Positions 1,652 through 29,891 of a stretch of DNA of 64,000 nt are shown piece after piece. The notes under the pieces were generated by a model that was not told where the DNA came from, ran no database searches, and saw only the letters and a program-made list of their open reading frames with translations. Each line of letters opens with the position of its first letter. The first letter of the stretch is position 1. Position numbers and translations under genes: made by a program. The DNA is from Patescibacteria group bacterium (GTDB lineage: Bacteria; Patescibacteriota; Doudnabacteria; UBA920; O2-02-FULL-48-8): the NCBI GenBank assembly GCA_036278915.1, contig DASUKB010000002.1:30152-94151 (forward strand), read 5' to 3'.

Positions 1652-4531
1652 TTATTTTGCTTTAATTTTTTCTTTCAGCGCCTTGGCCAGGTACTGGCCG
1701 GTGTAGCTTTTGGAAACTTTTGCCACTTCTTCCGGTGTGCCCACGGCCACGATCTCCCCGCCCTTGTGTCCGCCTTCAGGACCCAAATCCACTATCCAGT
1801 CGGCGGATTTGATGACATCCAAGTTGTGTTCAATCACGAGCACGGTATTGCCTTTCTCCACCAGCCGATTCAAAACGCCAAGCAGCCGTTTGACGTCGTC
1901 GAAGTGCAGGCCAGTGGTGGGCTCATCCAATATGTAAAGCGTACGTCCGGTGGAGGCGCGCGAAAGTTCTGTGGCGAGCTTAATGCGCTGAGCTTCGCCG
2001 CCGGAGAGCGTAGTCGCCTGCTGGCCAAGGTGCATATAGCCCAAGCCGACCAGGGACAAAGTTTCCAGTTTGCGCGCAATCAGCGGAACGGCGCGGAAAA
2101 AAATGTGCGCCTCGTCCACTGTCATTTCCAGAACGTCAGAAATAGTTTTGCCTTTGTAGTGGATGTCCAAGGCTTCTTTGTTGTAGCGTTTGCCTTTACA
2201 TTCCTCGCAGGTGACGTAAACATCGGGCAAAAAGTGCATCTCTATTTTTATAACGCCATCGCCGCCGCAAACTTCGCAGCGCCCGCCTTTGACGTTGAAA
2301 CTGAATCGCCCGGCTTTGTACCCGCGCATTTTGGCTTCGGGAGTAGACGCAAACAGATCGCGTATATAGGTAAAGACTCCGGTGTAAGTGGCGGGGTTGG
2401 AGCGGGGCGTACGTCCGATAGGACTTTGGTCAATGTCTATGACCTTGTCTATATTTTCTATGCCGAGCAGTTTCTTGTGCGCGCCAGCCGCGTCTTTGGC
2501 ATTATAGAAATAAGCAGACAATGCCTTGGCAAGAATTTCGTTCATAAGCGTGGATTTGCCGGAGCCGGACACGCCAGTGAGCACGACAAATTTGCCCAAT
2601 GGAATATCCAAGTCCACGTTTTTGAGATTGTGCTCGGTGGCGCCTACGATGCGGATAGTCTTGCCATTGCCGCGTCGGCGCGTGGATGGCACGGGGATGT
2701 TTGCATTACCCGAAAGATACTGGCCGGTGAGCGACTTCGGGTCTTTGGCAATTTCCGAAGGCGTGCCCTCGGCCACCAGTTCCCCGCCGTGCTTGCCCGC
2801 GCCCGGACCGATGTCTATAACCCAGTCCGAGGCCTCTATGGTTTCCTGGTCATGCTCAACCACGATGACCGTGTTGCCCAGGTCGCGCAAATTTTTGAGA
2901 GTCTTAAGCAGGCGGTCGTTGTCGCGCTGGTGCAGACCGATGGATGGCTCATCCAATATGTACAGCACGCCGGTAAGGCCGGAACCGATTTGCGTGGCCA
3001 GGCGAATGCGCTGCGCTTCGCCGCCGGAGAGCGTGTCCGCGCTGCGGTCCAAAGTTAAATAATTTAAACCCACGTCCTGCAAAAATTTCAAGCGGGCCAC
3101 AATTTCTTTGAGCACCTGGTGCGAGATTTTGGCATCTTTTTCGGAAAATTTCTTGGGCAAGCCGGCGGCAAACGAGACTGTGTCGTCTATGGACAGCGAA
3201 GCCACATCAATAATTGATTTGTCGTCTATGGTCACGGCCAAAAATTCCGGCTTAAGCCTCATGCCTTTGCAAGTCGGGCAAGTTTTAACGCGCATATACT
3301 GTTCAATTTCCCCGCGCATATAGTCCGAATCCGTCTCGCGGTACTTGCGCATAAGGTTTGGAATGACGCCTTCAAAAGACGTAAACCGTTCGTAGCCGGA
3401 CTCGTCCTGTAGTTTAACTTTTTGGTCGCCGGTGCCATAGAGGATGGCGTCCACGACTTTCTTGGGCAAATCCCGCACCGGAGCATTTATGGAAAATCCA
3501 TAGTTTTTGGCAACTGAATCCAAAACCCTCATATACCAGCTCATGCGCGAAGTTGTTTTGCTCCAGGGACGCACTGCGCCCTCGGCCAGGGTCAGTTTTG
3601 GATTCGGGATCACCAGTTCCGGCACGATCTCAAGCCGGGTGCCCAAACCAGTGCAGTCGGTGCAGGCTCCGTGCGGCGAATTAAATGAAAAATTCCGCGG
3701 GTTGAGTTCCGGCAAGCTCATGTGCCCCAGTGGACAGGCAAAATTTGAGGACAAGAGGATTTCTTCATCTGTTTTATGACTTTTAACTTCTGCCTTCTCA
3801 CTTCTGACTTCCGACTTCTGAATTATTACCGTGTCATTGCCCAGATCCAAAGCCGTCTCCAGCGAATCGGCCAGGCGGGCGCGGTCGGATGAATCAAGGC
3901 TGATGCGATCCACGACAATTTCTATGGAATGTTTTTTCTTCTTATCAATATTGATGCGCAAAGCTTCCGACAAATCCATGACGGTGCCGTCAAAACGGAC
4001 GCGGGTGTAACCGGTTTTGCGCGCCTCCTCCAGGAGATGCTTGTGTTCGCCCTTCTGGTCGGAGATGACGGGTGAAAGGATTACAATTTTGGAATCCTTG
4101 GGCCAAGACAAAACCTGGTCTACCATTTGCGTCACGCTCATGCCCGCGATGCGCCGGCCGCAGACTGGACAGTGTGGCACGCCCACGCGCGCGTACAGCA
4201 GGCGCAGGTAGTCATAAATTTCCGTAACCGTACCCACGGTGGAACGGGGGTTGTGAGAAGCGCTCTTTTGGTCTATGGAAATGGCCGGCGATAAACCTTC
4301 AATCTTGTCTACGTCTGGCTTGTCCATAAGCCCGAGGAACTGCCGGGCGTAAGCCGACAAGCTCTCCACGTAACGGCGCTGGCCCTCGGCGTATATGGTA
4401 TCAAACGCCAGGGAAGATTTGCCTGAACCCGAAAGACCCGTGATGACCACGAGCTTGTCTCTAGGAATATCCACATCAATATTTTTGAGGTTGTGTACCC
4501 GCGCCCCGCGGACCACGATCTTGTCGGTCAT
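1652..4531 (-). CDS. uvrA: Excinuclease ABC subunit A (UvrA), 959 aa
   Basis: Two ABC ATPase modules ([20 protein letters not shown]), zinc-finger Cys clusters and LSGGEAQR signature motifs. Confidence 0.97.
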
Positions 4532-4624
4532 ATATGATAGTGCTTTCGGATTAGCAAATTAGTTACGGCGAGAATGCCCTCCCAAAAAAACTTTGGGAAG
4601 GCTTTAAATTAGCCAGGACAGTAT

Positions 4625-4660
4625 AAACGAAAAAAACCGCCCTGGCAAGGTACCGGGGCG
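4625..4660 (-). terminator. Rho-independent terminator for the 135-aa membrane-protein gene. On the minus strand it reads cccgcgccgccccggtaccttgccagggcgg followed by TTTTTTT.
   Basis: GC-rich imperfect hairpin with a U-run on the minus strand between 4674 and the uvrA start. Confidence 0.45.
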
Positions 4661-4673
4661 GCGCGGGTGAATT

Positions 4674-5081
4674 CTAGTGCTGCAGGCTGGCTTGGAATTT
4701 CCGGTATTCGTAGAAATGCCGGATCTTGCGCTGAATGGGTACGAGGCTCATCAGACCAAACCAGATGAGACTGGGCGCAAACCGGAACCGGAAGCAGACG
4801 GGGAACCAATGCGCCAGGCCCATCATCACAAACGGGGCCAGGATCACGAGGCTTATCTGGACGAAAGCTGGGAAGACGTTCTTGTCGTCGTCCTTGCTAT
4901 ACCAAAACCAGAGGACCGTGACCTCAGCCAGAAGCACCACACCCCAGAGGGCGGACATGGGCGGGTAAGCAAACAGCCACATGGGAGCATGGGTCAACTG
5001 AGCGTAGCCTATGGCAAGCACGGTCACCACAGCCCAGAAGAGCGCGACCACAATAATTCCCTTCACAACATGCATAATCAT
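4674..5081 (-). CDS. Hypothetical small integral membrane protein (135 aa, about 4 TM helices)
   Basis: Hydrophobic ORF with its own downstream terminator; it diverges from uvrC. The long + ORF 4677..7088 overlapping it is only the untranslated upstream extension of uvrC. Confidence 0.5.
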   Translation of the reverse strand: MIMHVVKGIIVVALFWAVVTVLAIGYAQLTHAPMWLFAYPPMSALWGVVLLAEVTVLWFWYSKDDDKNVFPAFVQISLVILAPFVMMGLAHWFPVCFRFRFAPSLIWFGLMSLVPIQRKIRHFYEYRKFQASLQH

Positions 5082-5123
5082 TCCTCCTTAGACGCAACTT
5101 ATGCAAAAAAGTATAATACTCTT

Positions 5124-7088
5124 ATGCAAAAATTGCTAGCCCAGAAAATCTCCGAGCTGCCGGCCAGACCCGGCGTGTACCGCTTTTATGATCAAGCCGG
5201 TCTTTTACTTTACGTTGGCAAAGCCAATAAGCTCAAAAACCGCGTCTCCTCTTACTTCAAACCAGACTACAGCAGCAACCGCGGGCAGAGAATCGAACTT
5301 ATGATCTCGCAGATTGCGGATTTGGACTACACTGTGGTCCGCAACGAAGTTGAAGCTTTGGTTTTGGAAAATAATTTCATCAAAAACCTCAAACCCAAAT
5401 ACAACGTCCGCATGCGCGACGACAAAAATTATATCTTTCTCAAAATTAATGCCGCAGACGAAATCCCAACTATAGACTACGAACACCAACGGTTAGACAA
5501 ATCCGCCAAATATTTCGGGCCGTACACGTCCTCACTGGCCATAAAAGACACACTGCGCCTGCTGAGGCGTGTATTCCCCTACTGCGCCAATTCCAAAGTA
5601 ACTTCCAAACCCTGTTTTTATTATCACATCGGCAAATGCCCAGGAGTCTGCTTTGGCAAAATTTCAACCGAGGATTATCGTAAAAATTATATCGGCAAAA
5701 TTGTCCAGTTCCTGGAAGGGCGGGAACAGGAAGTCCTCCAGAACCTCAAATCGGAAATGAAAATATTTGCGAAGTCTCGCCAATACGAAAAAGCTGCGCG
5801 GGTGCGGGATCAAATTTTTGCGCTTAATCGCGTCCTGGAGCGGCAAAAATTGGTTTATTCAACCAAAGTCAGCCAGGATGTATTTTCTCTGCATTGCGAA
5901 TCTGTGGCCGTGGTCAATTTATTCATAGTCCGCGAGGGCAAACTCATTCAAAAAGAAAATTTTGTCCTGGAAAACACCCGGCAAGTGCCAGCGGAGGAAA
6001 TTTTGCAAAGTTTTTTGGAAAGATACTACCTAGATGCCACGAATTTGCCGAAAGAAATTTTGGTTCCGTTCTTGATTGATGACACCGAATTAAAAACAGT
6101 TTTTATTGCTCTTGATAATAACCCCTCCCAACCTCCCCTTACATTAAGGGGAGGGGCGACCAAAACCAAACTGCAGCCTGGTTTTGATTTACCCCCTCTT
6201 ATATTAAGAGGGGGTGCGTCAGGCAAGGGTTCGCGGGGGAGTTATTTACCAAAGATCTCTGTGCCTGTGAAAGGCGAACGCCTGAAACTTCTGCAGCTCG
6301 GCACGGAAAATGCCAAACATTATCTGGAGGCCGCATCCGACAAGCACCTCCTGGAAGAGACGCGGCTTTTGGCGTCGCTTAGAGAACTGCAACGGGTGCT
6401 GGAATTGCCGGCCCTCCCCTCGCGTATGGAGTGCTTTGATATTTCAAACATTCAGGGCACAAATGCTGTGGGATCCATGGTCGTGTTTGACTACGCCCGT
6501 CCGAAAAAAAGCGACTATCGCAAATTTAAAATCCAACGGAAGAACACTCCGGACGACTTTGCGATGATGCGCGAGATGCTGGCGAGAAGGTTCAAACATT
6601 CGCTCCCGTCACCCCCGCCCGAACGACCAGGTCGGGCGGGCCTCTCCCCTCACCCCTGGCCTTTGCCTGACCTCATCATTATAGACGGCGGAAAGGGACA
6701 GCTGAGCGCGGCCACGGCGGCAATTTCGAATTCCGAATTTCCTAATTCTAAACAAATTTCTATCATTGGGCTGGCCAAAAGGCTGGAAGAAATATTTTTG
6801 CCCGGCAGAAAAGATCCGATCCGCCTGCCCGATAATTCCCCTGCTTTGTTTTTGCTGCAACGCATCCGCGATGAAGCCCACCGGTTTGCCATCACGTACC
6901 ACCGCAAACTCCGATCTAAATCCGCTGTAACCTCGGTCCTGGACCAAATCTCAGGCATCGGTCCGGCCAAAAAGAAAAAGTTGCTGGACAAATTCGGGTC
7001 AGCAGCCAAACTGAAGACAGCGAGCCTCACGGACATCGCCGAGGTCGTAGGCAGTCGTGTTGCAGAAAAAATAAAGGCCTCATTGTAA
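5124..7088 (+). CDS. uvrC: Excinuclease ABC subunit C (UvrC), about 654 aa, carrying in-frame palindromic insertions
   Basis: GIY-YIG N-terminus (GVYRFYD...LLYVGKA), UvrBC-interaction region, PDLIIIDGGKGQL endonuclease motif and C-terminal (HhH)2 (GIGPAKKKKLL). The ATG at 5124 lies in frame in the long ORF, and a TATAAT sits at 5112..5117, suggesting a leaderless start. Confidence 0.93.
   Translation: MQKLLAQKISELPARPGVYRFYDQAGLLLYVGKANKLKNRVSSYFKPDYSSNRGQRIELMISQIADLDYTVVRNEVEALVLENNFIKNLKPKYNVRMRDDKNYIFLKINAADEIPTIDYEHQRLDKSAKYFGPYTSSLAIKDTLRLLRRVFPYCANSKVTSKPCFYYHIGKCPGVCFGKISTEDYRKNYIGKIVQFLEGREQEVLQNLKSEMKIFAKSRQYEKAARVRDQIFALNRVLERQKLVYSTKVSQDVFSLHCESVAVVNLFIVREGKLIQKENFVLENTRQVPAEEILQSFLERYYLDATNLPKEILVPFLIDDTELKTVFIALDNNPSQPPLTLRGGATKTKLQPGFDLPPLILRGGASGKGSRGSYLPKISVPVKGERLKLLQLGTENAKHYLEAASDKHLLEETRLLASLRELQRVLELPALPSRMECFDISNIQGTNAVGSMVVFDYARPKKSDYRKFKIQRKNTPDDFAMMREMLARRFKHSLPSPPPERPGRAGLSPHPWPLPDLIIIDGGKGQLSAATAAISNSEFPNSKQISIIGLAKRLEEIFLPGRKDPIRLPDNSPALFLLQRIRDEAHRFAITYHRKLRSKSAVTSVLDQISGIGPAKKKKLLDKFGSAAKLKTASLTDIAEVVGSRVAEKIKASL
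6122..6156 (+). repeat. Palindromic element copy 1 inside uvrC: arms cctcccctta / taaggggagg (6132..6141 and 6145..6154, 3-nt loop), preceded by a cccctcccaacc module. It encodes NNPSQPPLTLRGGA.
   Basis: Perfect 10-bp inverted repeat read directly from the sequence; in frame. Confidence 0.8.
6192..6214 (+). repeat. Palindromic element copy 2 inside uvrC: ccccctctta-tat-taagaggggg, encoding LPPLILRGGA.
   Basis: Perfect 10-bp inverted repeat with a 3-nt loop, 37 nt downstream of copy 1; identical arms to the intergenic copy at 11576..11598. Confidence 0.8.
6613..6639 (+). repeat. Third in-frame palindrome inside uvrC: cccgcccga-acgaccagg-tcgggcggg, encoding PPPERPGRAG, within a proline-rich insert before PDLIIIDGG.
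   Basis: Perfect 9-bp inverted repeat; flanking sequence is C-rich (cacccccg, tcccctcacccctgg). Confidence 0.6.
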
Positions 7089-7278
7089 TTTATTACCCCC
7101 AACAATGAGTCTGTAAGGCGGGCAGTACGAAAATGTTTGAAGCGAGGACGGCGGTTTTTGAGGACAACTTGCGAAGACCTTCCAATGTCGAGCACTTTAG
7201 TCCCGTGCCAAGCGGGACGTGTCCGAAAAAACTGTCTGTCCGAGCGATAATATAAATGAACCGCGCCCAAAAAGCTCA

Positions 7279-7307
7279 TTGACACCTCCCTACTTTTCTG
7301 GCAGAAT
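7279..7307 (+). promoter_or_regulatory. Sigma70-like promoter upstream of secG: TTGACA-17 nt-CAGAAT
   Basis: ttgaca at 7279..7284, a 17-nt spacer, then cagaat at 7302..7307, about 60 nt before the secG ATG. Confidence 0.35.
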
Positions 7308-7366
7308 AGTTAAGCAAATTAGCCAAATTTTTTTACTTCTAACTTCTCACTTTTAACTTTCATTTT

Positions 7367-7594
7367 ATGCATATTTCACAAAACGTTCTGACATTTATCC
7401 TAATTGCCGTGGATGTGGTGCTAGTTATCTGCATCCTTGTCCAACAAAAAGAGGGCGGCCTTTCCACTGTCTTTGGCGGCGAAGGCACAGTCTTCCGCTC
7501 CAAGCGCGGACTGGCCCGCGGGTTGCACTACTTCACCATTGCCCTAGCCATCATTTTTATCGGGCTGTCCGTTTTGGTTCTGTTCATCTCCTAA
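7367..7594 (+). CDS. secG: Preprotein translocase subunit SecG (75 aa)
   Basis: Two TM helices flanking a Gly-rich loop (QQKEGGLSTVFGGEG), the typical SecG architecture and size. Confidence 0.7.
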   Translation: MHISQNVLTFILIAVDVVLVICILVQQKEGGLSTVFGGEGTVFRSKRGLARGLHYFTIALAIIFIGLSVLVLFIS

Positions 7595-7601
7595 TCTACT
7601 C

Positions 7602-9392
7602 ATGGTAAGTTTGTTCAAAAAGTTGCGAAGCTTTTTGGGATCCGCCTGGCGAGGATTGCGCGTGCTGCCGAAGCTGCGCAGCCGCCACTTGCCCCAGATC
7701 CTAGAGAGCTTCACCAAAAAAGACCTGGCCGCTGTTGCGGCTTTTGCGTTAATACTGGCATTATCCGGCACATACCTTATACGCGCGGAATTTTTCGGCT
7801 CTTCATCGGGCATCCCCGACTACGGCGGCGAGCATGTCGAAGGCCTCATCGGCCAGCCGCGATTTATAAATCCGGTGTTGGCGGCCTCATCTAGCGTGGA
7901 TTCGGATTTGTCGCGCCTGGTGTATGCGCCTCTGCTGCAGTTTGACCAAAACCTCAATCTTGTGCCGGCTTTGGCCGACGCCTTGCCTCAGATTTCCGCA
8001 GACCAAAAAACTTACACCCTGAAACTAAAAAGTAATCTCAAATGGCAGGACGGCCAGCCGATTAACGCCGACGACATCGTCTACACGATCGAGACGATAC
8101 AGGATCCGGACTACGAATCGCCTCTGGCTGCCAATTGGGAGCGGGTCAAGATTGAGAAAATTGATGATCTGACCGTGCAATTTACTCTGCACGAGGTCTC
8201 GGCTTCATTTATATCCAACTTCACGCTCGGGATTTTGCCTAAACATGTCTGGAGCAGTCTTAGTCCAAACAGTTTCCGGCTGGCTTCGCAAAACCTACAG
8301 CCAGTGGGCTCGGGTCCGTATGCTGTCCACGAGATCAAAAAAACTTCCGACGGCAAAATCACAGCGATAACGCTTATGGCCAACAGCAATTTTTATGATG
8401 GCACGCCCTACATCACCTATTTCACGTTTAAGTTTTACGATGACGAAACTTCGCTTTCGTCTGCCTACCAGGCCAAAGACATCCAAGCGATAGGCTTTGT
8501 GCCTTTTGACAGCAAAACGTTCGTACAAGACGGCAACCGAGCAAGCCAGTATCAGATAAATTTACCGCAATACCAGGCCGTGTTCTTCAACCTGCCAAAG
8601 AATTCCATCCTGGGCGATCTTTCCGTGCGCCAGGCGCTCTGGCTTGCCACAGATCGCGCGCCTATCATTGACCAGGTTTATCTCGGACTGGCCAAGCCAG
8701 CCTATGGGCCAATCCTGCCCGGGAATTTGGGATACAGCGACGCGGCCAAAAATGCCGCGCATACGAGTGTGGGTGAAGCCGCTGGCATTTTGGACAAAGC
8801 CGGCTGGATACTGGACCCATCCACCAATACTCGCTACAAAATGGTTACGACTGGTACAGGCACTAGCAAAACCCAGACTCGCGTCAATTTGGAATTCAAT
8901 CTTGCCACGAGCGTGTCGCCGTTAAATGTAAAAACCGCGGAAATTTTGGAACAGCAATGGGCGCAAATCGGCGCTACCGTGCACTCGGTGGTGGTTTCGG
9001 CCTCCGACCTGCAAGACAACTACATCCGCCCTCGCAACTTTGACGCGTTGCTGTTTTCCGAAAACACAGGGCCGGACCCCGATCCGTTTCCGTTCTGGGC
9101 CTCATCACAGGCCCATGACCCCGGTCTGAATTTGTCAGGGTTTTCCGATGCCACCGTGGACAAACTGCTCACAGACGCGCGCCAAACCAACGACACCAAT
9201 GTCCGAGCGCAGGATTATCAGCAGTTCCAGGATATCATCAACCAGCAAATTCCCGCGATATTTCTGGACAGCGCGCAGTACGTGTACACCCTGCCAAAAA
9301 AGGAACAGGGCTTTGAACTAACGACTATGATCTATCCGTCCGAACGCTTCCTGGATGTCCAACATTGGTATATAGAGACAAAAAGAAAATAA
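7602..9392 (+). CDS. Extracellular solute-binding protein, family 5 (peptide/nickel-type ABC substrate-binding protein), membrane-anchored
   Basis: N-terminal TM anchor then an SBP_bac_5-like domain (YTLKLKSNLKWQDGQPINADDIVYTIE...); translationally coupled 8 nt after secG. Confidence 0.65.
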   Translation: MVSLFKKLRSFLGSAWRGLRVLPKLRSRHLPQILESFTKKDLAAVAAFALILALSGTYLIRAEFFGSSSGIPDYGGEHVEGLIGQPRFINPVLAASSSVDSDLSRLVYAPLLQFDQNLNLVPALADALPQISADQKTYTLKLKSNLKWQDGQPINADDIVYTIETIQDPDYESPLAANWERVKIEKIDDLTVQFTLHEVSASFISNFTLGILPKHVWSSLSPNSFRLASQNLQPVGSGPYAVHEIKKTSDGKITAITLMANSNFYDGTPYITYFTFKFYDDETSLSSAYQAKDIQAIGFVPFDSKTFVQDGNRASQYQINLPQYQAVFFNLPKNSILGDLSVRQALWLATDRAPIIDQVYLGLAKPAYGPILPGNLGYSDAAKNAAHTSVGEAAGILDKAGWILDPSTNTRYKMVTTGTGTSKTQTRVNLEFNLATSVSPLNVKTAEILEQQWAQIGATVHSVVVSASDLQDNYIRPRNFDALLFSENTGPDPDPFPFWASSQAHDPGLNLSGFSDATVDKLLTDARQTNDTNVRAQDYQQFQDIINQQIPAIFLDSAQYVYTLPKKEQGFELTTMIYPSERFLDVQHWYIETKRK

Positions 9393-9420
9393 CCGACAAG
9401 TCGGTTATTTTTATATACAA
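9393..9420. terminator. Bidirectional intrinsic terminator aaccgac-aagt-cggtt followed by ATTTTTAT
   Basis: Hairpin immediately after the SBP stop, with T-runs on both sides. Confidence 0.5.
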
Positions 9421-9424
9421 ATTC

Positions 9425-9510
9425 TGGTGGGCGTGGAGAGATTTGAACTCTCAAGGACGTAAGTCCACACGCTCCTGAAGCGTGCGCGTATGCCAGTTCC
9501 GCCACACGCC
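9425..9510 (-). tRNA. tRNA-Leu(CAG), 86 nt with long variable arm and encoded CCA
   Basis: Minus-strand read: acceptor GGGCGUG/CACGCCC, anticodon stem CACGC/GCGUG with loop UUCAGGA (anticodon CAG, G37), variable arm UGGACUUACGUCCUU, T-arm GAGAG-UUCAAAU-CUCUC, A73-CCA. Confidence 0.85.
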
Positions 9511-9555
9511 CGATATGGAGGATTATAAATCAATTTCCGGACAAACGGAAGAGTC

Positions 9556-9586
9556 ATTGACAAGAGCGGCCAGGTAGTATATACTG
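9556..9586 (+). promoter_or_regulatory. Sigma70-like promoter TTGACA-17 nt-TATATA(CT), about 210 nt upstream of rnj
   Basis: ttgaca at 9556..9561, a 17-nt spacer, then tatata at 9579..9584; this implies a long rnj leader. Confidence 0.4.
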
Positions 9587-9793
9587 GCTTCACCAAGAAA
9601 TTGGCAAAATTGAAACAAAAGTGCGAAATATACCTTAATTGGCACGAAAAAGTCCGTAAATCTACTATAGATTTCTTTGTGTTAATTAAGCCTCTGGTGC
9701 CCTAAGGCCTGCCTTAGCCCAAGCTTACCAAATATTTATTTATTTCCCTGAAACACACAGGGGGAAAGTTTTTTTGCTTCGTCATCTCATTTA

Positions 9794-11560
9794 ATGAGTA
9801 CGAGCATGCGAATTATGATTAACAAACGCATCGCAGGCGTAGCTGTCCGGGAAAAACCGCAAACACAGCCACAGCCGCAACGAACCGATTCCAAAAATAC
9901 GCTCCGGGTTATTCCCTTGGGCGGTATTGAAGAAGTCGGCGAAAATATGACCATTATGGAGTATGGTGACGATATCCTGGTCATAGACATGGGTCTCGGC
10001 TTCCCCGACGAAACCATGCCCGGGATTGACTACATCATCCCCAACACCAAGTATCTGGAAGATAACAAAAAAAGGATTAAGGGCGTCATCATCACGCACG
10101 GTCACTTGGACCATATCGGCGCCATTCCTTATATCTTGCCCAAAATCGGCGATCCGCCAATTTATACCATGAAGTTAACCGGCGAGCTTATCAAAAAGCG
10201 GCTGGAGGAGTTTCATCTCCTGGGACGTTCCCAAATTCATGAACTAAATAAAGACGACGTACTGACCCTGGGTAATTTCCGCATCCGATTTTTCCGGATC
10301 AACCACAACATTCCCGATGGCGTGGGATTGGCCATCAACACCCCGGCCGGCCTGCTGGTTTACGCGACAGACTGGAAATTCGACCATACGCCTGTAGACG
10401 GACGTCCGACAGAATTTGACAAACTGGCAAAATTTGGCGGCGAAGGCGTGGCGCTTTTGATGAGCGATTCCACCAACGCCGAAAAACCCGGCTATTCCAT
10501 GTCGGAAAAAACTCTTGGCGATACCATTGACCGCATTATGCAGGACGCCAAAGGACGAGTGATCTTTGCCACCTTCTCCACGCTTATTTCCCGCGTGCAG
10601 CAGGTCATAGATGCCGCGTACAAGACCAACCGCAAAATCGTGGTTACCGGCAGATCTCTTGTAAATAACGTGGAAATCTGTCTGGCCACCAATTACCTCA
10701 AAATGCCGGCCAAGGGCATGATCATAAAAATGGAACAGGCCCGCAAACTTCCGGACAACCAGGTCGTGATCCTCACCACCGGGTCGCAAGGCGAAGAGGC
10801 TTCGGCTTTGGCCCGCATTGCGCGCAATGAGCACAAGACCATAGAAATTAAGAAGGGCGACACCTGCGTGGTGTCTGCATCTCCTATTCCGGGAAACGAA
10901 CGCGCGATTTCTTCCATACTTTCTTCTCTAGCCCGCCAAGGCGCCAAGGTTTTGTACCAGAAAATTCTGGACATCCACACCTCGGGCCACGCCTACCAGG
11001 AAGATTTGAAGCTGATGATTTCCCTGACCAAGCCCAAGTACTTTATGCCGATTCACGGCGAGCATCACATGCTTTTGGCTCACTCGGAATTGGCCAAGGC
11101 TGTGGGCGTGCCGGACCAGAACATCTTCACTCTGGACAACGGCCAGCAGCTGGAACTCACGGACCGTGGCGTGCGCGTGGCAGATGCCAAAATCCCCACT
11201 GGCTACGTGTTCGTGGACGGGCTCGGCGTGGGTGACGTAGGCGAAGTCGTATTGCGCGATCGCCAGGTTATGAGCAAAGACGGTATGTTTGTCATCATTA
11301 TGACTATCGATAAAAGAACCGGTAAACTTACTCAACAGCCTGACATTATTTCGCGCGGCTTCATCTACATGAAAGGTTCCGAAGATCTGCTTAAGGAAGT
11401 CAAGCACGAAGTGCGCAAAGTCGTGGAGACCAAATCCAAAGGGCCATCTGAACCCAACTGGGCGTTCATCCGCTCGGAAGTCCGCGATTCAGTCGGCGAA
11501 TTCCTGTTCCAAAGGACCGAACGTCGTCCAATGATTCTTCCAGTTATAATTGAGGTCTAA
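9794..11560 (+). CDS. rnj: Ribonuclease J (metallo-beta-lactamase / beta-CASP RNase)
   Basis: HGHLDH motif (ITHGHLDHIGAIPYI), beta-CASP region and C-terminal domain; about 35-aa N-terminal extension, so the true start may be an internal Met (9806). Confidence 0.9.
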   Translation: MSTSMRIMINKRIAGVAVREKPQTQPQPQRTDSKNTLRVIPLGGIEEVGENMTIMEYGDDILVIDMGLGFPDETMPGIDYIIPNTKYLEDNKKRIKGVIITHGHLDHIGAIPYILPKIGDPPIYTMKLTGELIKKRLEEFHLLGRSQIHELNKDDVLTLGNFRIRFFRINHNIPDGVGLAINTPAGLLVYATDWKFDHTPVDGRPTEFDKLAKFGGEGVALLMSDSTNAEKPGYSMSEKTLGDTIDRIMQDAKGRVIFATFSTLISRVQQVIDAAYKTNRKIVVTGRSLVNNVEICLATNYLKMPAKGMIIKMEQARKLPDNQVVILTTGSQGEEASALARIARNEHKTIEIKKGDTCVVSASPIPGNERAISSILSSLARQGAKVLYQKILDIHTSGHAYQEDLKLMISLTKPKYFMPIHGEHHMLLAHSELAKAVGVPDQNIFTLDNGQQLELTDRGVRVADAKIPTGYVFVDGLGVGDVGEVVLRDRQVMSKDGMFVIIMTIDKRTGKLTQQPDIISRGFIYMKGSEDLLKEVKHEVRKVVETKSKGPSEPNWAFIRSEVRDSVGEFLFQRTERRPMILPVIIEV

Positions 11561-11568
11561 TCGTAACT

Positions 11569-11606
11569 CCCCCTACCCCCTCTTATCCTAAGAGGGGGTT
11601 TTGTTT
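11569..11606 (+). repeat. Intergenic copy of the palindromic element: ctcccccta-ccccctctta-tcc-taagaggggg followed by TTTTGTTT. It doubles as the terminator-like hairpin after rnj.
   Basis: Arms at 11576..11585 and 11589..11598 match uvrC copy 2 exactly. The 5' module cccccta-ccccctctt parallels the valS copy cccccaa-ccccctctt. Confidence 0.7.
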
Positions 11607-11727
11607 CAATGCGGCCGCACGAAAAATAGGTTTGCGTATACGCAAACTCAATACTGAATTAAAAAATAAGAGCTACGGGTCGGTTTATCCCGACACCCGG
11701 AAAAATGTCGTCGGAATTTGACGCGAG
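11607..11727 (+). repeat. Left copy of a roughly 45-nt direct repeat (caatgcggccgcacgaaaaat ... gtcgtcggaatttgacgcgag), interrupted by a 73-nt insert (11628..11700) bounded by a gaaaaat duplication
   Basis: The uninterrupted right copy at 12549..12590 reads caatgcggccgcatgaaaaat-tta-gtcagaattcgacgcgag. The insert carries a 16-bp perfect palindrome tttgcgtatacgcaaa (11631..11646). Confidence 0.6.
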
Positions 11728-11866
11728 CTTATGTGTTGCGAAGAATGTTTTTCCCTTCGCAAATATAAGGCAGTTAGCGAGCAAGAAATTCCGGGACATT
11801 TTTCCCGTGTCGCCAATTTTTGGCGCCACCTTTTGTTTGGCACAAAAGGTGGCAAAATGGTCAACG

Positions 11867-11915
11867 CAAACTCAATAGTTAAGTATTGAGTTAAAAAATA
11901 AGACCGCGAGGTCCG
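11867..11915 (-). terminator. Intrinsic terminator for the small Cys-rich gene pair. On the minus strand it reads ccgcgcggtcctaacggacctcgcgg followed by TCTTATTTTTT.
   Basis: GC hairpin plus U-run immediately after the stop at 11916. The module acgcaaactcaata...ttaaaaaataaga also occurs at 11641..11675. Confidence 0.5.
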
Positions 11916-12250
11916 TTAGGACCGCGCGGCTTTCTTCTTCGGGTGGATCTTGCCTGAGTTGCTGTACATGAGTTTGCAGGACTTGCAGTACGTCTCGGTA
12001 CTGACTACGGCTCTCATCGGATTCGAACCACCGATACGCATCTCGTATATACTCACAGCCAATTCGTACTCAGTCCGAGTGACTCGTACCACTTCTCCGC
12101 CACAACTGCATTCGCCCACTATCTTGCGAGTGGTGCGTGGCTTGTAGCGCTCCTCTTCTTCTTTACGGCGCTTCTCCGCTGCTTTCCGAAACGCAGCATC
12201 GAATTTACCTTGAAGCTGTTTCAGTACGTCCTCAGGCAACTTCTTAGGCA
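11916..12250 (-). CDS. Hypothetical small basic zinc-ribbon protein (about 111 aa from MPKKLPEDV; CSCGG...CKSC)
   Basis: Probable start at the ATG at 12248..12250, preceded by GAGGAGG and overlapping the upstream ORF stop (TGATG). The ORF track extends it to 12287 with an alternative start. Confidence 0.45.
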
Positions 12251-12417
12251 TCACTCCTCCTCGGGATTGCAGGTCGGGCACAGGCACTCAACTTCTTTCC
12301 AAATCATAGGATCCACGGAAATTATTGCCGGAACCGTGAAGGAACAGTTGTGCTCGCCTTCCTCACAACTGTCGCATATGGCCGACTCAATTGCCGACAG
12401 TACCTCAGCTTTGTGCA
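12250..12417 (-). CDS. Hypothetical Cys-rich mini-protein, 55 aa (MHKAEVLSAIESAICDSCEEGEHNCSFTVPAIISVDPMIWKEVECLCPTCNPEEE)
   Basis: Below the 60-aa cut-off of the ORF track. It has 7 Cys in CxxC-like pairs, and its stop overlaps the start of the downstream gene, suggesting translational coupling. A 20-aa uORF with a strong AAGGAGGGGG SD lies just upstream. Confidence 0.35.
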
Positions 12418-12548
12418 TCACAATCCACTCCCTCGTGGGCTGGCCATTTTTCGCTCATTACTCTCATGCCCCCTCCTTGCGATTGAGGTAATCCTAACCA
12501 ATATTCCAGTTTGCTGTCAAAGCCCACCTTTCAAGGAAGATTTCTTTT

Positions 12549-12590
12549 GTTTTGGTCTCAATGCGGCCGCATGAAAAATTTAGTCAGAAT
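12549..12590 (+). repeat. Right copy of the roughly 45-nt direct repeat (caatgcggccgcatgaaaaat-tta-gtcagaattcgacgcgag) bracketing the Cys-rich gene pair
   Basis: Near-identical to 11607..11627 plus 11707..11727 (2-3 mismatches). Confidence 0.6.
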
Positions 12591-12687
12591 TCGACGCGAG
12601 ACGATAGGTTGCGACTTTCTTTTGATTTCTTTTCTTTCCTAGAAAGAAAAGAAATAGGAACATAAAGGAGTTATTGATTAAGTAAAA

Positions 12688-13689
12688 ATGAGCTATAATA
12701 TACCCATGTCAAAAGAACGGATTGTTTCGGGAATCCAACCCACAGGTGAACTGCATATAGGCAACTACTTGGGCAGCCTCAAGAACTTTGTCGAACTTCA
12801 GGACAAATTTGAGTGCTTCTTTTTTGTCGCAGATTTACATTCTTTGACCGAAGACTTTGAGCCTGGCAAAGCCAAAGCAGAACAGATCCGCAATTTGGTC
12901 AAAACAATGCTCGCCGCAGGCCTCAACCCGGATAAGTGCACGATATTTATACAATCCCAAGTCCCTGCCCACACGGAACTGGCTTGGATTTTCAATACCC
13001 TGCTTCCCATGGGCGAACTGGAACGCATGACCCAGTACAAAGACAAGGCCGCCAGGCAATCAACAAACGTAAACGTGGGACTTTTCGATTACCCGGTGCT
13101 CCAGGCCGCAGACATTTTAATTTATAAACCAGCTTACGTGCCGGTGGGACACGACCAAATGCAGCATCTGGAACTGACCAACACACTCGCCCGCAAATTC
13201 AACCACAAGTTCGGCGAAACTTTCACAGAAATCAAGCCTTACGTCAGTAAGCCGGTGCGGGTAATGAGTTTGTCCGATCCGACCCGCAAGATGAGTAAAT
13301 CCGAACCTGGATCTTTCATAAATATGTTTGATACACCGGAAGAAATCCACAAAAAATTATCCCGCGCAGTCACTGCCACTGATGCGCCGGAAGGTGAGAT
13401 GCCCAAAGGCGTGAAGAATTTATTTGACCTCTTGCTTGAATTCGGAAAGCAGGAGGCGTATGATGATTTCATCAAGCAATACCAAAGCGGCAGCATCAAA
13501 TACGCGGAATTGAAAGAAGCCCTAAGCCAGGCAATTGCCCTATATTTCCAACCAATGCGCGAAATGCGGAAACAGTTAGACACACAAACCAAGCAGATTG
13601 ACCAGATTATTACCGAAGGCAGCCGCAAAGCCTGCGCTTTTGCCCAATCGACAATTAACGAAGTGAAAGCAAAAATAGGGTTGGTCTAA
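12688..13689 (+). CDS. trpS: Tryptophanyl-tRNA synthetase
   Basis: Class I motifs (GELHIGNYLG ~ HIGH; KMSKSEPGS ~ KMSKS), 333 aa. Confidence 0.92.
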   Translation: MSYNIPMSKERIVSGIQPTGELHIGNYLGSLKNFVELQDKFECFFFVADLHSLTEDFEPGKAKAEQIRNLVKTMLAAGLNPDKCTIFIQSQVPAHTELAWIFNTLLPMGELERMTQYKDKAARQSTNVNVGLFDYPVLQAADILIYKPAYVPVGHDQMQHLELTNTLARKFNHKFGETFTEIKPYVSKPVRVMSLSDPTRKMSKSEPGSFINMFDTPEEIHKKLSRAVTATDAPEGEMPKGVKNLFDLLLEFGKQEAYDDFIKQYQSGSIKYAELKEALSQAIALYFQPMREMRKQLDTQTKQIDQIITEGSRKACAFAQSTINEVKAKIGLV

Positions 13690-13740
13690 AGATACCTCCA
13701 GATAACATCAAAAGGTATTTTTCATTTCCAAGGGGGGCCA

Positions 13741-14130
13741 ATGTTAATGTTTGCATTCGTGGAATTTCCGGACTGCAATGCTCAGGAGGGGCATGGCTCA
13801 TTTGTAGCACGGCAACTCAACCGCTTTCTGCACGAACCCTTCTACTATCCCGAATGGGAGCAGCGAGGCATCACGCAAAACAGATTCCGCTACAGCTGGT
13901 GGCGGCCGGAGCATCCGACCACGCTCAATCTGGGATTCGAAATCAACCCGGACTCAGAAGCCATTCGGGTGAAGCTCGTTTGGCTGCGGGAGCTGTTTCC
14001 CGGCGCACTGCGGGCCCAGATCTTTTCTCCGGAATTGGGCATTCCAACCGGAGCGGAAATACAGCCGCGCAGATCCACGCCTGCGGAGGTGATCCCGATC
14101 GCGAATTTTCGCAAACGGCAGGTTGCATAG
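13741..14130 (+). CDS. Hypothetical protein (129 aa, Trp/Arg-rich) in a locally GC-rich (about 60%) segment
   Basis: Good SD (aagggggg, 8 nt before the ATG) and a downstream bidirectional terminator. No recognisable family, and several overlapping ORFs on both strands, so coding status is uncertain. Confidence 0.35.
   Translation: MLMFAFVEFPDCNAQEGHGSFVARQLNRFLHEPFYYPEWEQRGITQNRFRYSWWRPEHPTTLNLGFEINPDSEAIRVKLVWLRELFPGALRAQIFSPELGIPTGAEIQPRRSTPAEVIPIANFRKRQVA

Positions 14131-27695: not shown

Positions 27696-29891
<2,196 letters not shown>

Follow-up and report, generated by a model that had tools for sequence, protein, structure and literature searches.

The short palindrome that follows the RNase J gene (rnj) in the 64,000-nt stretch of DNA analysed here, called the window, is, as judged from its sequence, the solo B-end of a dispersed nested-palindrome repeat, lying in inverted orientation relative to the B-end of the copy in uvrC. 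Together with the T-tract TTTTGTTT, the segment 11564-11599 would form a canonical Rho-independent terminator of rnj, a reading to which we assign a probability of about 0.68. We infer that the element was recruited to this role after its insertion, rather than having arisen as a terminator. The positions of the features discussed below are collected in Table 1.

Table 1. Features of the rnj 3' end and of the repeat copies in uvrC and valS (positions in the window).
Feature	Positions	Strand	Basis
Full composite in uvrC, 126 nt = 42 codons, in frame	6119..6244	+	profiles, module scan
uvrC composite, module TAACCCCTCC	6119-6128		
uvrC composite, hairpin A	6132-6154		
uvrC composite, hairpin B	6191-6215		
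uvrC composite, module GGGGGAGTTA	6235-6244		
rnj (RNase J) ORF; start in the public annotation 9815	9794..11560	+	Pfam RNase_J_b_CASP and RNase_J_C
Terminal module TAACTCCCCC (reverse complement of right-end module GGGGGAGTTA)	11564..11573	+	B-end profile, module scan
Hairpin B after rnj: stem 11575-11585 / 11589-11599, loop TCC 11586-11588	11575..11599	+	pattern match, folding
T-tract TTTTGTTT, its first T being the last stem base	11599..11606	+	sequence, terminator scan
Terminator-like hairpin and T-run serving the convergent ORF 11916-12251	11901..11914	-	terminator-like site scan
Degenerate single-hairpin copy in valS, in frame, with both end modules	29483..29552	+	profile, module scan
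valS copy, TAAC..AACGCCCCCC			
valS copy, hairpin	29498-29522		
valS copy, GGGGGAGTTG	29543-29552		

The two RNase J domains of the rnj ORF are recognised by Pfam with E values of 4e-44 and 2e-31. Its product is 100% identical to P0001, annotated as 'MAG TPA: ribonuclease J [Patescibacteria group bacterium]'. The RNase J matches at 82-94% identity include many named Doudnabacteria, and the source of the window is an uncultured member of the Patescibacteria (CPR) close to Candidatus Doudnabacteria. The stop codon TAA occupies 11558-11560; three bases (TCG) separate it from the module TAACTCCCCC, and the stem begins 14 nt past the stop. The gene on the 3' side is small and convergent and has its own terminator-like site, which indicates that the transcription unit ends with rnj. 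On the plus strand, no second terminator-like site was found between rnj and this convergent gene.

Two further observations were made at this locus. If the rnj frame is read on past two stops (TAA TCG TAA) through 11558-11599, the element appears in the phase ..PPLILRGG.., as in the second hairpin copy of uvrC; since the chance of such an agreement is one in three, the shared codon phase is probably meaningless. Also, a 29-nt direct repeat (TTTTGTTTCAATGCGGCCGCACGAAAAAT) has 90% identical copies at 11599-11627 and 12551-12579, the first of which starts at the T-tract. The pair brackets about 0.95 kb between rnj and trpS, and the enclosed stretch (11628-12550) has the appearance of a cassette insertion or of a duplication that arose locally. 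It holds two minus-strand ORFs of 111 and 55 aa, neither with a Pfam match, as well as small internal repeats (11642-11685 resembles 11866-11917). No hairpin was found upstream of the direct-repeat copy at 12551.

Past the rnj stop the parts follow each other in the order TCG, TAACTCCCCC, TA, ACCCCCTCTTA-TCC-TAAGAGGGGGT and TTTTGTTT. The hairpin consists of 11 bp, six of which are GC pairs, and a 3-nt loop, with a folding energy of -17.8 kcal/mol (z=-3.6) that was reached in none of 200 shuffles. It has thus the stable GC-rich stem-loop of intrinsic terminators (5-14 bp, loop of 3-8 nt), and the other two characteristics, a U-tract directly 3' of the stem and a location behind the last gene of a transcription unit, are present as well. 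The stretch TTTGTTTC comes directly after the hairpin, and the T-tract TTTTGTTT is broken by one G. In a scan of positions 4000-14000 (10 kb) the rnj hairpin is the first-listed terminator-like site. Among the T-tracts of the relatives, TTTTTGGTTTC at locus L248 is suggestive of homology with the one in the window, a relationship that is unprovable.

The first-pass annotation had placed the element at 11569-11606; the string that it quoted is indeed present, but at 11567-11607, that is, 1-2 nt away from the coordinates given. Its statement that the arms are identical to those of the second copy in uvrC is borne out (the uvrC counterpart lies at 6192-6214), and so is the likeness of the 5' module to the valS copy, AACTCCCCC-TA at rnj resembling AACGCCCCCCAA in valS. 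The arm pattern has three matches in the window as compared to none in 100 shuffles. In total, the window contains exactly four such C-rich/G-rich hairpins, namely two in uvrC, one after rnj and one in valS. The rnj hairpin is itself palindromic, and it is the flanking module that marks it as a B-end, in the orientation opposite to that of the B-end in uvrC.

The full repeat has the order (N)TAACCCCTCC, 2-4 nt, hairpin A, spacer, hairpin B, 2-3 nt, GGGGGAGTTA(N), where hairpin A is CCTCCCCTTA-NNN-TAAGGGGAGG, hairpin B is CCCCCTCTTA-NNN-TAAGAGGGGG, and the spacer varies between 3 and 70 nt. The ends are imperfect inverted repeats, each beside a sub-terminal hairpin, with TAACCCCTCC and GGGGGAGTTA being complementary at 8 of 10 positions, or at 9 when a G-T wobble is counted. 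Single-hairpin and solo versions also occur, and copies with one or two hairpins measure about 50-130 nt. The rnj copy shows the parts of a B-end, that is, TAACYCCYCC, 2-4 nt and a 10-bp C-rich/G-rich hairpin with a TTA-NNN-TAA tip. Neither a hairpin A nor a GGRGGRGTTA module was found downstream of 11599, and the copy is therefore taken to be solo.

To represent the two ends, profiles were built from foreign copies alone. These match the window's own copies and nothing else in the window, and the B-end profile covers 11564-11598 (+) at full length with E=2e-11. At 34 of 35 positions, the rnj copy is identical to a copy from Geobacter (locus L025). The stem shows strong covariation among the copies, with Fisher p values of 1.6e-18, 8e-24 and 6e-9 for the three pairs left free by the search pattern, where copies and not independent events are counted, and eight perfect stem types were seen. 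The stem is evidently kept by compensatory changes.

The family is widely distributed. A genome scan with a degenerate hairpin pattern, using one genome per species and matching type A only, gave at least 120 loci. Among the matches listed, these loci belong to Desulfuromonadota, Nitrospirota, Gammaproteobacteria, Bacillota, Bacteroidota and several CPR lineages, with a second Doudnabacteria genome also present, and type B recurrently adjoins type A in them. At least 120 loci were likewise obtained in a metagenome scan with a 30-nt B-end pattern (TAACTCCCCC-N2-3-hairpin B). Exact hairpins with proper TAAC../..GTTA modules were also found on predicted viral contigs of IMG/VR, those of type A on 9 contigs and those of type B on 25 (L251-L282). 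The near-identity of the CPR and Geobacter copies together with the exact hairpins on viral contigs points to horizontal spread, for which viral contigs are a possible vehicle across phyla.

Several known classes were considered for the element. Rfam gave no family at the gathering score for the window and 14 foreign loci; PyrR appeared below the threshold (28 vs 54 bits), which reflects the CCCTCT/AGAGGG arms. An integron attC site was rejected, as the flanks, judged by eye, do not fit RYYYAAC/GTTRRRY, and so was a hammerhead-like three-way junction, the junctions being 2-3 nt long and the catalytic core absent. A full-text literature search for 10-mers of the element gave nothing relevant, and a search of the literature on MITEs in Patescibacteria found no description of the element.

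We now consider what is found behind rnj in related organisms. The rnj neighbourhoods of eight distinct Doudnabacteria-like relatives, with 85-94% RNase J identity, were compared, and the synteny of uvrA, uvrC, secG, a solute-binding protein gene, rnj and trpS is kept in them. Six of the eight have a stem-loop and a T-run right after rnj, with sequences that are unrelated both to each other and to the window hairpin (examples are AAAACCGCCA..TGGCGGTTTTTTG, GCCTCTGGC..GCCAGAGGTCTTTTTTT and CCGCTCC-GAAA-GGGGCGGTTTTCTTTTT). One of the remaining relatives has a hairpin without a T-run and the other has no evident terminator, which means that a terminator at this 3' end is not universal. For three of the relatives the hairpin energies are -14 to -18.6 kcal/mol, a range that covers the window hairpin. 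The C-rich element was found near rnj in none of the eight, anywhere in the flanks fetched. A terminator is thus expected at this position, and in the window it is the repeat that supplies the hairpin.

That this organism uses ordinary intrinsic terminators is indicated by the window itself, in which a hairpin with a T-run stands at 13 of 52 gene ends, vs 25 of 500 intragenic control windows. The intrinsic-terminator form that the first-pass annotation had ascribed to the rnj site is in good agreement with these results, considering the stem-loop with its T-run, the end of the transcription unit and the unrelated hairpins at the same place in the relatives. The terminator is accordingly conserved by position, with a hairpin that in the window's lineage comes from a repeat; termination itself we infer from these sequence comparisons.

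In the proposed mechanism, RNA polymerase would copy first the C-rich and then the G-rich arm, after which the 11-bp hairpin would fold in the exit channel. With a weak rU:dA hybrid in the active site, the transcript would then be released. Termination at the end of rnj would mean that there is no read-through into the downstream convergent cassette.

A different possibility is that the rnj copy is the remnant of a selfish repeat without a role in termination, in which case the T-run would be leftover spacer or a chance AT-rich flank, and rnj would end elsewhere or by Rho. The family is indeed not built for termination: if a T-run is defined as six or more T among the 9 nt that follow the hairpin, 3 of 146 foreign one-sided B-ends (2%) have one, and the other 98% are without it. 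Two of these three copies, at L132 (after gyrB) and L244, have the left flank TCG-TAACTCCCCC as at rnj, and in both of them the T-rich stretch past hairpin B belongs to a full composite, whose internal spacer it is. The T-tract at rnj may therefore be element-borne and incidental rather than ancestral. Also in favour of a remnant, the element at L244 lies just downstream of an ordinary terminator. The geometry of hairpin and T-tract at rnj is, however, canonical, six of the eight relatives have a terminator at the same position, and no other plus-strand terminator-like site is present from rnj to the convergent gene. A mere remnant is thus considered unlikely. We also regard it as rather unlikely that the element is mainly a 3' stabiliser, that is, a REP-like stem-loop that shields the rnj mRNA from 3'-to-5' exonucleases irrespective of whether the transcript is released there. 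REP elements are established 3' stabilisers of mRNA, and the rnj hairpin is very stable and located in the 3' UTR. The T-tract, on the other hand, is unneeded for stabilisation. The two roles are compatible, and the present evidence does not separate stabilisation from termination.

The first-pass annotation had further suggested that the family originated from terminator hairpins, the coding copies having shed the U-tract to avoid premature termination. One copy, that at rnj, does have the terminator form, and a terminator-like repeat family, SPRITE, is known in S. pneumoniae (PMC10969869). Against such an origin stand the T-run counts, which are low at foreign B-ends and also at foreign A hairpins (about 6 of 133), the conserved flank of the hairpin, which is a terminal module of the family's own and not a T-tract, the arrangement of the elements in inverted pairs and around DUF559 genes, and the occurrence of the repeat across phyla. 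With T-runs at about 2% of the foreign copies, a derivation of the family from terminators is not supported, and we consider it highly improbable. As to the coding copies, a T-run is in fact absent from all three coding hairpins, but there is no need to see an adaptation in this, as copies of the family are by default without a U-tract. Co-option as a terminator, which had also been proposed, is reasonable for the rnj copy, which looks like a local exaptation. The gene context of the foreign copies (106 tandem, 19 convergent, 18 divergent and 28 inside long ORFs, against background gene-pair shares of 64% tandem, 17% convergent and 20% divergent) shows a weak, not a strong, preference for gene 3' ends. 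Another option is a role at the DNA level, where hairpin and module would be recognised by a nucleoid protein, or be recognised or cleaved by a nuclease (e.g. DUF559), and transcription would be affected, if at all, as a by-product. The bracketing of DUF559 genes by elements in other genomes speaks for this, as do the stem mismatches, which are without strand bias. With the DUF559 gene absent from the window and from the relatives' loci, we judge this role to be distinctly unlikely, and an RNA-level role of the rnj copy would still be compatible with it.

Returning to the copies within genes, the full composite in uvrC is matched by the A-end profile at 6119-6154 (+) with E=9e-13 and by the B-end profile at 6244-6192 (-) with E=1.5e-7. 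Relative to four relatives, UvrC has an insertion of 36-43 aa in a variable linker (..NNPSQPPLTLRGG..LPPLILRGG..), and the RNA of the copy folds with -62 kcal/mol (z=-5). The valS copy is more weakly matched, at 29488-29521 with E=0.02, and its RNA has a folding energy of -35 kcal/mol (z=-5.6). In ValRS it corresponds to about 15 extra aa (APQPPLYQSGG..GEL) in the variable linker before the anticodon domain, which are absent in 10 of 11 relatives. At the same place in the linker, another Doudnabacteria ValRS (P0133) carries a longer insert that also belongs to the family (NSPQPPLKLRE..RRGLG..; alignment A2, columns 615-650); the two either go back to one old insertion that is shared or mark a hot spot for insertion. 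A different insertion, 'VILSGAKDLPKDSSAAERHNLPAPQNDKK', was noticed in the UvrC of one relative (L005 4424-6298) at another variable site (alignment A1, columns 507-530), and may represent a further repeat family, unrelated to the first, with in-frame copies in CPR genomes.

The genes in the vicinity of the foreign elements were also analysed, by clustering the ORFs within 1.5 kb of elements over 1.45 Mb of element-selected loci. The top recurrent neighbour family is a protein of about 125 aa that belongs to Pfam DUF559 (E about 1e-34). Of the 14 DUF559 genes found, 11-12 are bracketed by elements in a fixed geometry; the 13 clustered ones were inspected, at the foreign loci L018, L024, L029, L031, L032, L086, L140, L154, L181, L185, L244, L283 and L286. 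Upstream of the gene there is a hairpin B, then 2-3 nt, then GGGGGAGTT and ATG, an order that makes the start codon overlap the GTTA end. At the other side, the last codons and the stop are provided by the TAACCCCTCC module and the first hairpin arm of the next element, and the protein ends in '..KVTPPxLPLT*'. This element-encoded tail ('..VTPPxLPL') is present in 82 of the best 120 proteins from a search with the DUF559 core, and two 'tail-less' genes, when checked as DNA, have elements on both sides. One locus in Desulfuromonadaceae (L031, 2700-4120) has an array of eight element copies in 1.4 kb, with a spacing of about 220 nt between the first four. What separates the composites resembles the 5' region of a DUF559 gene, and one intact DUF559 gene lies inside this array.

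Together with Vsr and the homing endonuclease of a group I intron, DUF559 has been placed in the PD-(D/E)xK superfamily (PMC3424549), and its nearest solved structure is 3hrl. It is important to stress that neither the window nor the loci from relatives and viral contigs contain a DUF559 gene. Its link to the window's genome is, because of its absence from the window, an indirect one. No RAYT-like cluster was identified among the neighbour clusters listed, no transposase was seen next to elements, and, at the level of titles and abstracts, no link of DUF559 to repeats was found among the papers listed. A tentative overall picture, to which we would give somewhat less than even odds, is that of a repeat system, for which we found no description, across phyla and viral contigs, with a DUF559 partner that spreads or maintains the repeats, and with copies that have been fixed in frame in essential CPR genes and recruited as terminators.

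For the rnj locus itself the result is modest: it suggests how a dispersed repeat can take the place of a gene's own terminator hairpin without loss of the function, an ordinary job being done by an unusual part. The wider value lies in the repeat family, which in a reduced CPR genome has in-frame copies in both uvrC and valS. The bracketing of DUF559 genes in other genomes leads in addition to testable suggestions as to what a large protein family 'of unknown function' does and how the repeats move.

It is instructive to compare these elements with known systems. REP, BIME and REPIN sequences with their RAYT genes are similar in being short GC-rich dispersed palindromes, often in inverted pairs, with a nuclease gene bracketed, and DUF559 between elements is analogous to RAYT with REPs, an arrangement for which no describing paper was found. 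The REP-type sequences are known as 3' stabilisers and attenuators, and REP roles are summarised in PMC3733652. The present elements lack, however, the GTAG/CGTC tag of these sequences and end instead in TAAC...GTTA, with the TAAC flank conserved in the foreign copies inspected. Furthermore, the bracketed gene identified is a DUF559 gene (PD-(D/E)xK, Vsr-like) and not a Y1 HUH RAYT, and the present family occurs also in frame inside genes, and with the same sequence in many phyla. The terminal inverted repeats and the small size of MITEs are seen in the family. TA is conserved at both outer ends of the element and an empty site was not found; since the linkers that contain the uvrC and valS copies are variable, there is no clean empty site from which a TA duplication could be read.

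With the Rickettsia palindromic elements (RPE) the family shares the occurrence of in-frame palindromes in housekeeping genes, where a peptide is added in a tolerant loop, here in uvrC and valS. These two copies, inserted in frame at variable loops, match the behaviour reviewed for RPE in PMC10969869, a comparison that does not apply to the intergenic copy. The family is nevertheless unrelated to RPE in sequence, C/G-rich and cross-phylum, whereas RPE are confined to one genus. SPRITE (PMC10969869) is similar in being a repeat family whose hairpin can resemble a terminator, but there the terminator-like form is a feature of the element; in the present family the T-tract is not part of the repeated unit, as the count of 3 in 146 foreign B-ends demonstrates. 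The Geobacter 'class 4' CCYTC-based multicopy sequences (Aklujkar 2009, PMC2700814 Fig. S6) are similar in style, with a different consensus (CCCTCACCC...CCCTCTCCC-NNN-GGGAGAGGG), and among the palindromic multicopy families of G. bemidjiensis (PMC2996986) one enters genes without causing frameshifts. Those 9- and 10-mers of our element that were searched for are absent from the main text and text supplements of both PMC2700814 and PMC2996986, and the unnamed multicopy sequences of these two papers are the nearest published descriptions. Finally, the rnj site resembles ordinary intrinsic terminators in having a GC-rich stem-loop followed by a U-tract, right behind the last stop codon of a transcription unit, and differs from them in that its hairpin is a copy of a dispersed repeat that is found also inside uvrC and valS.
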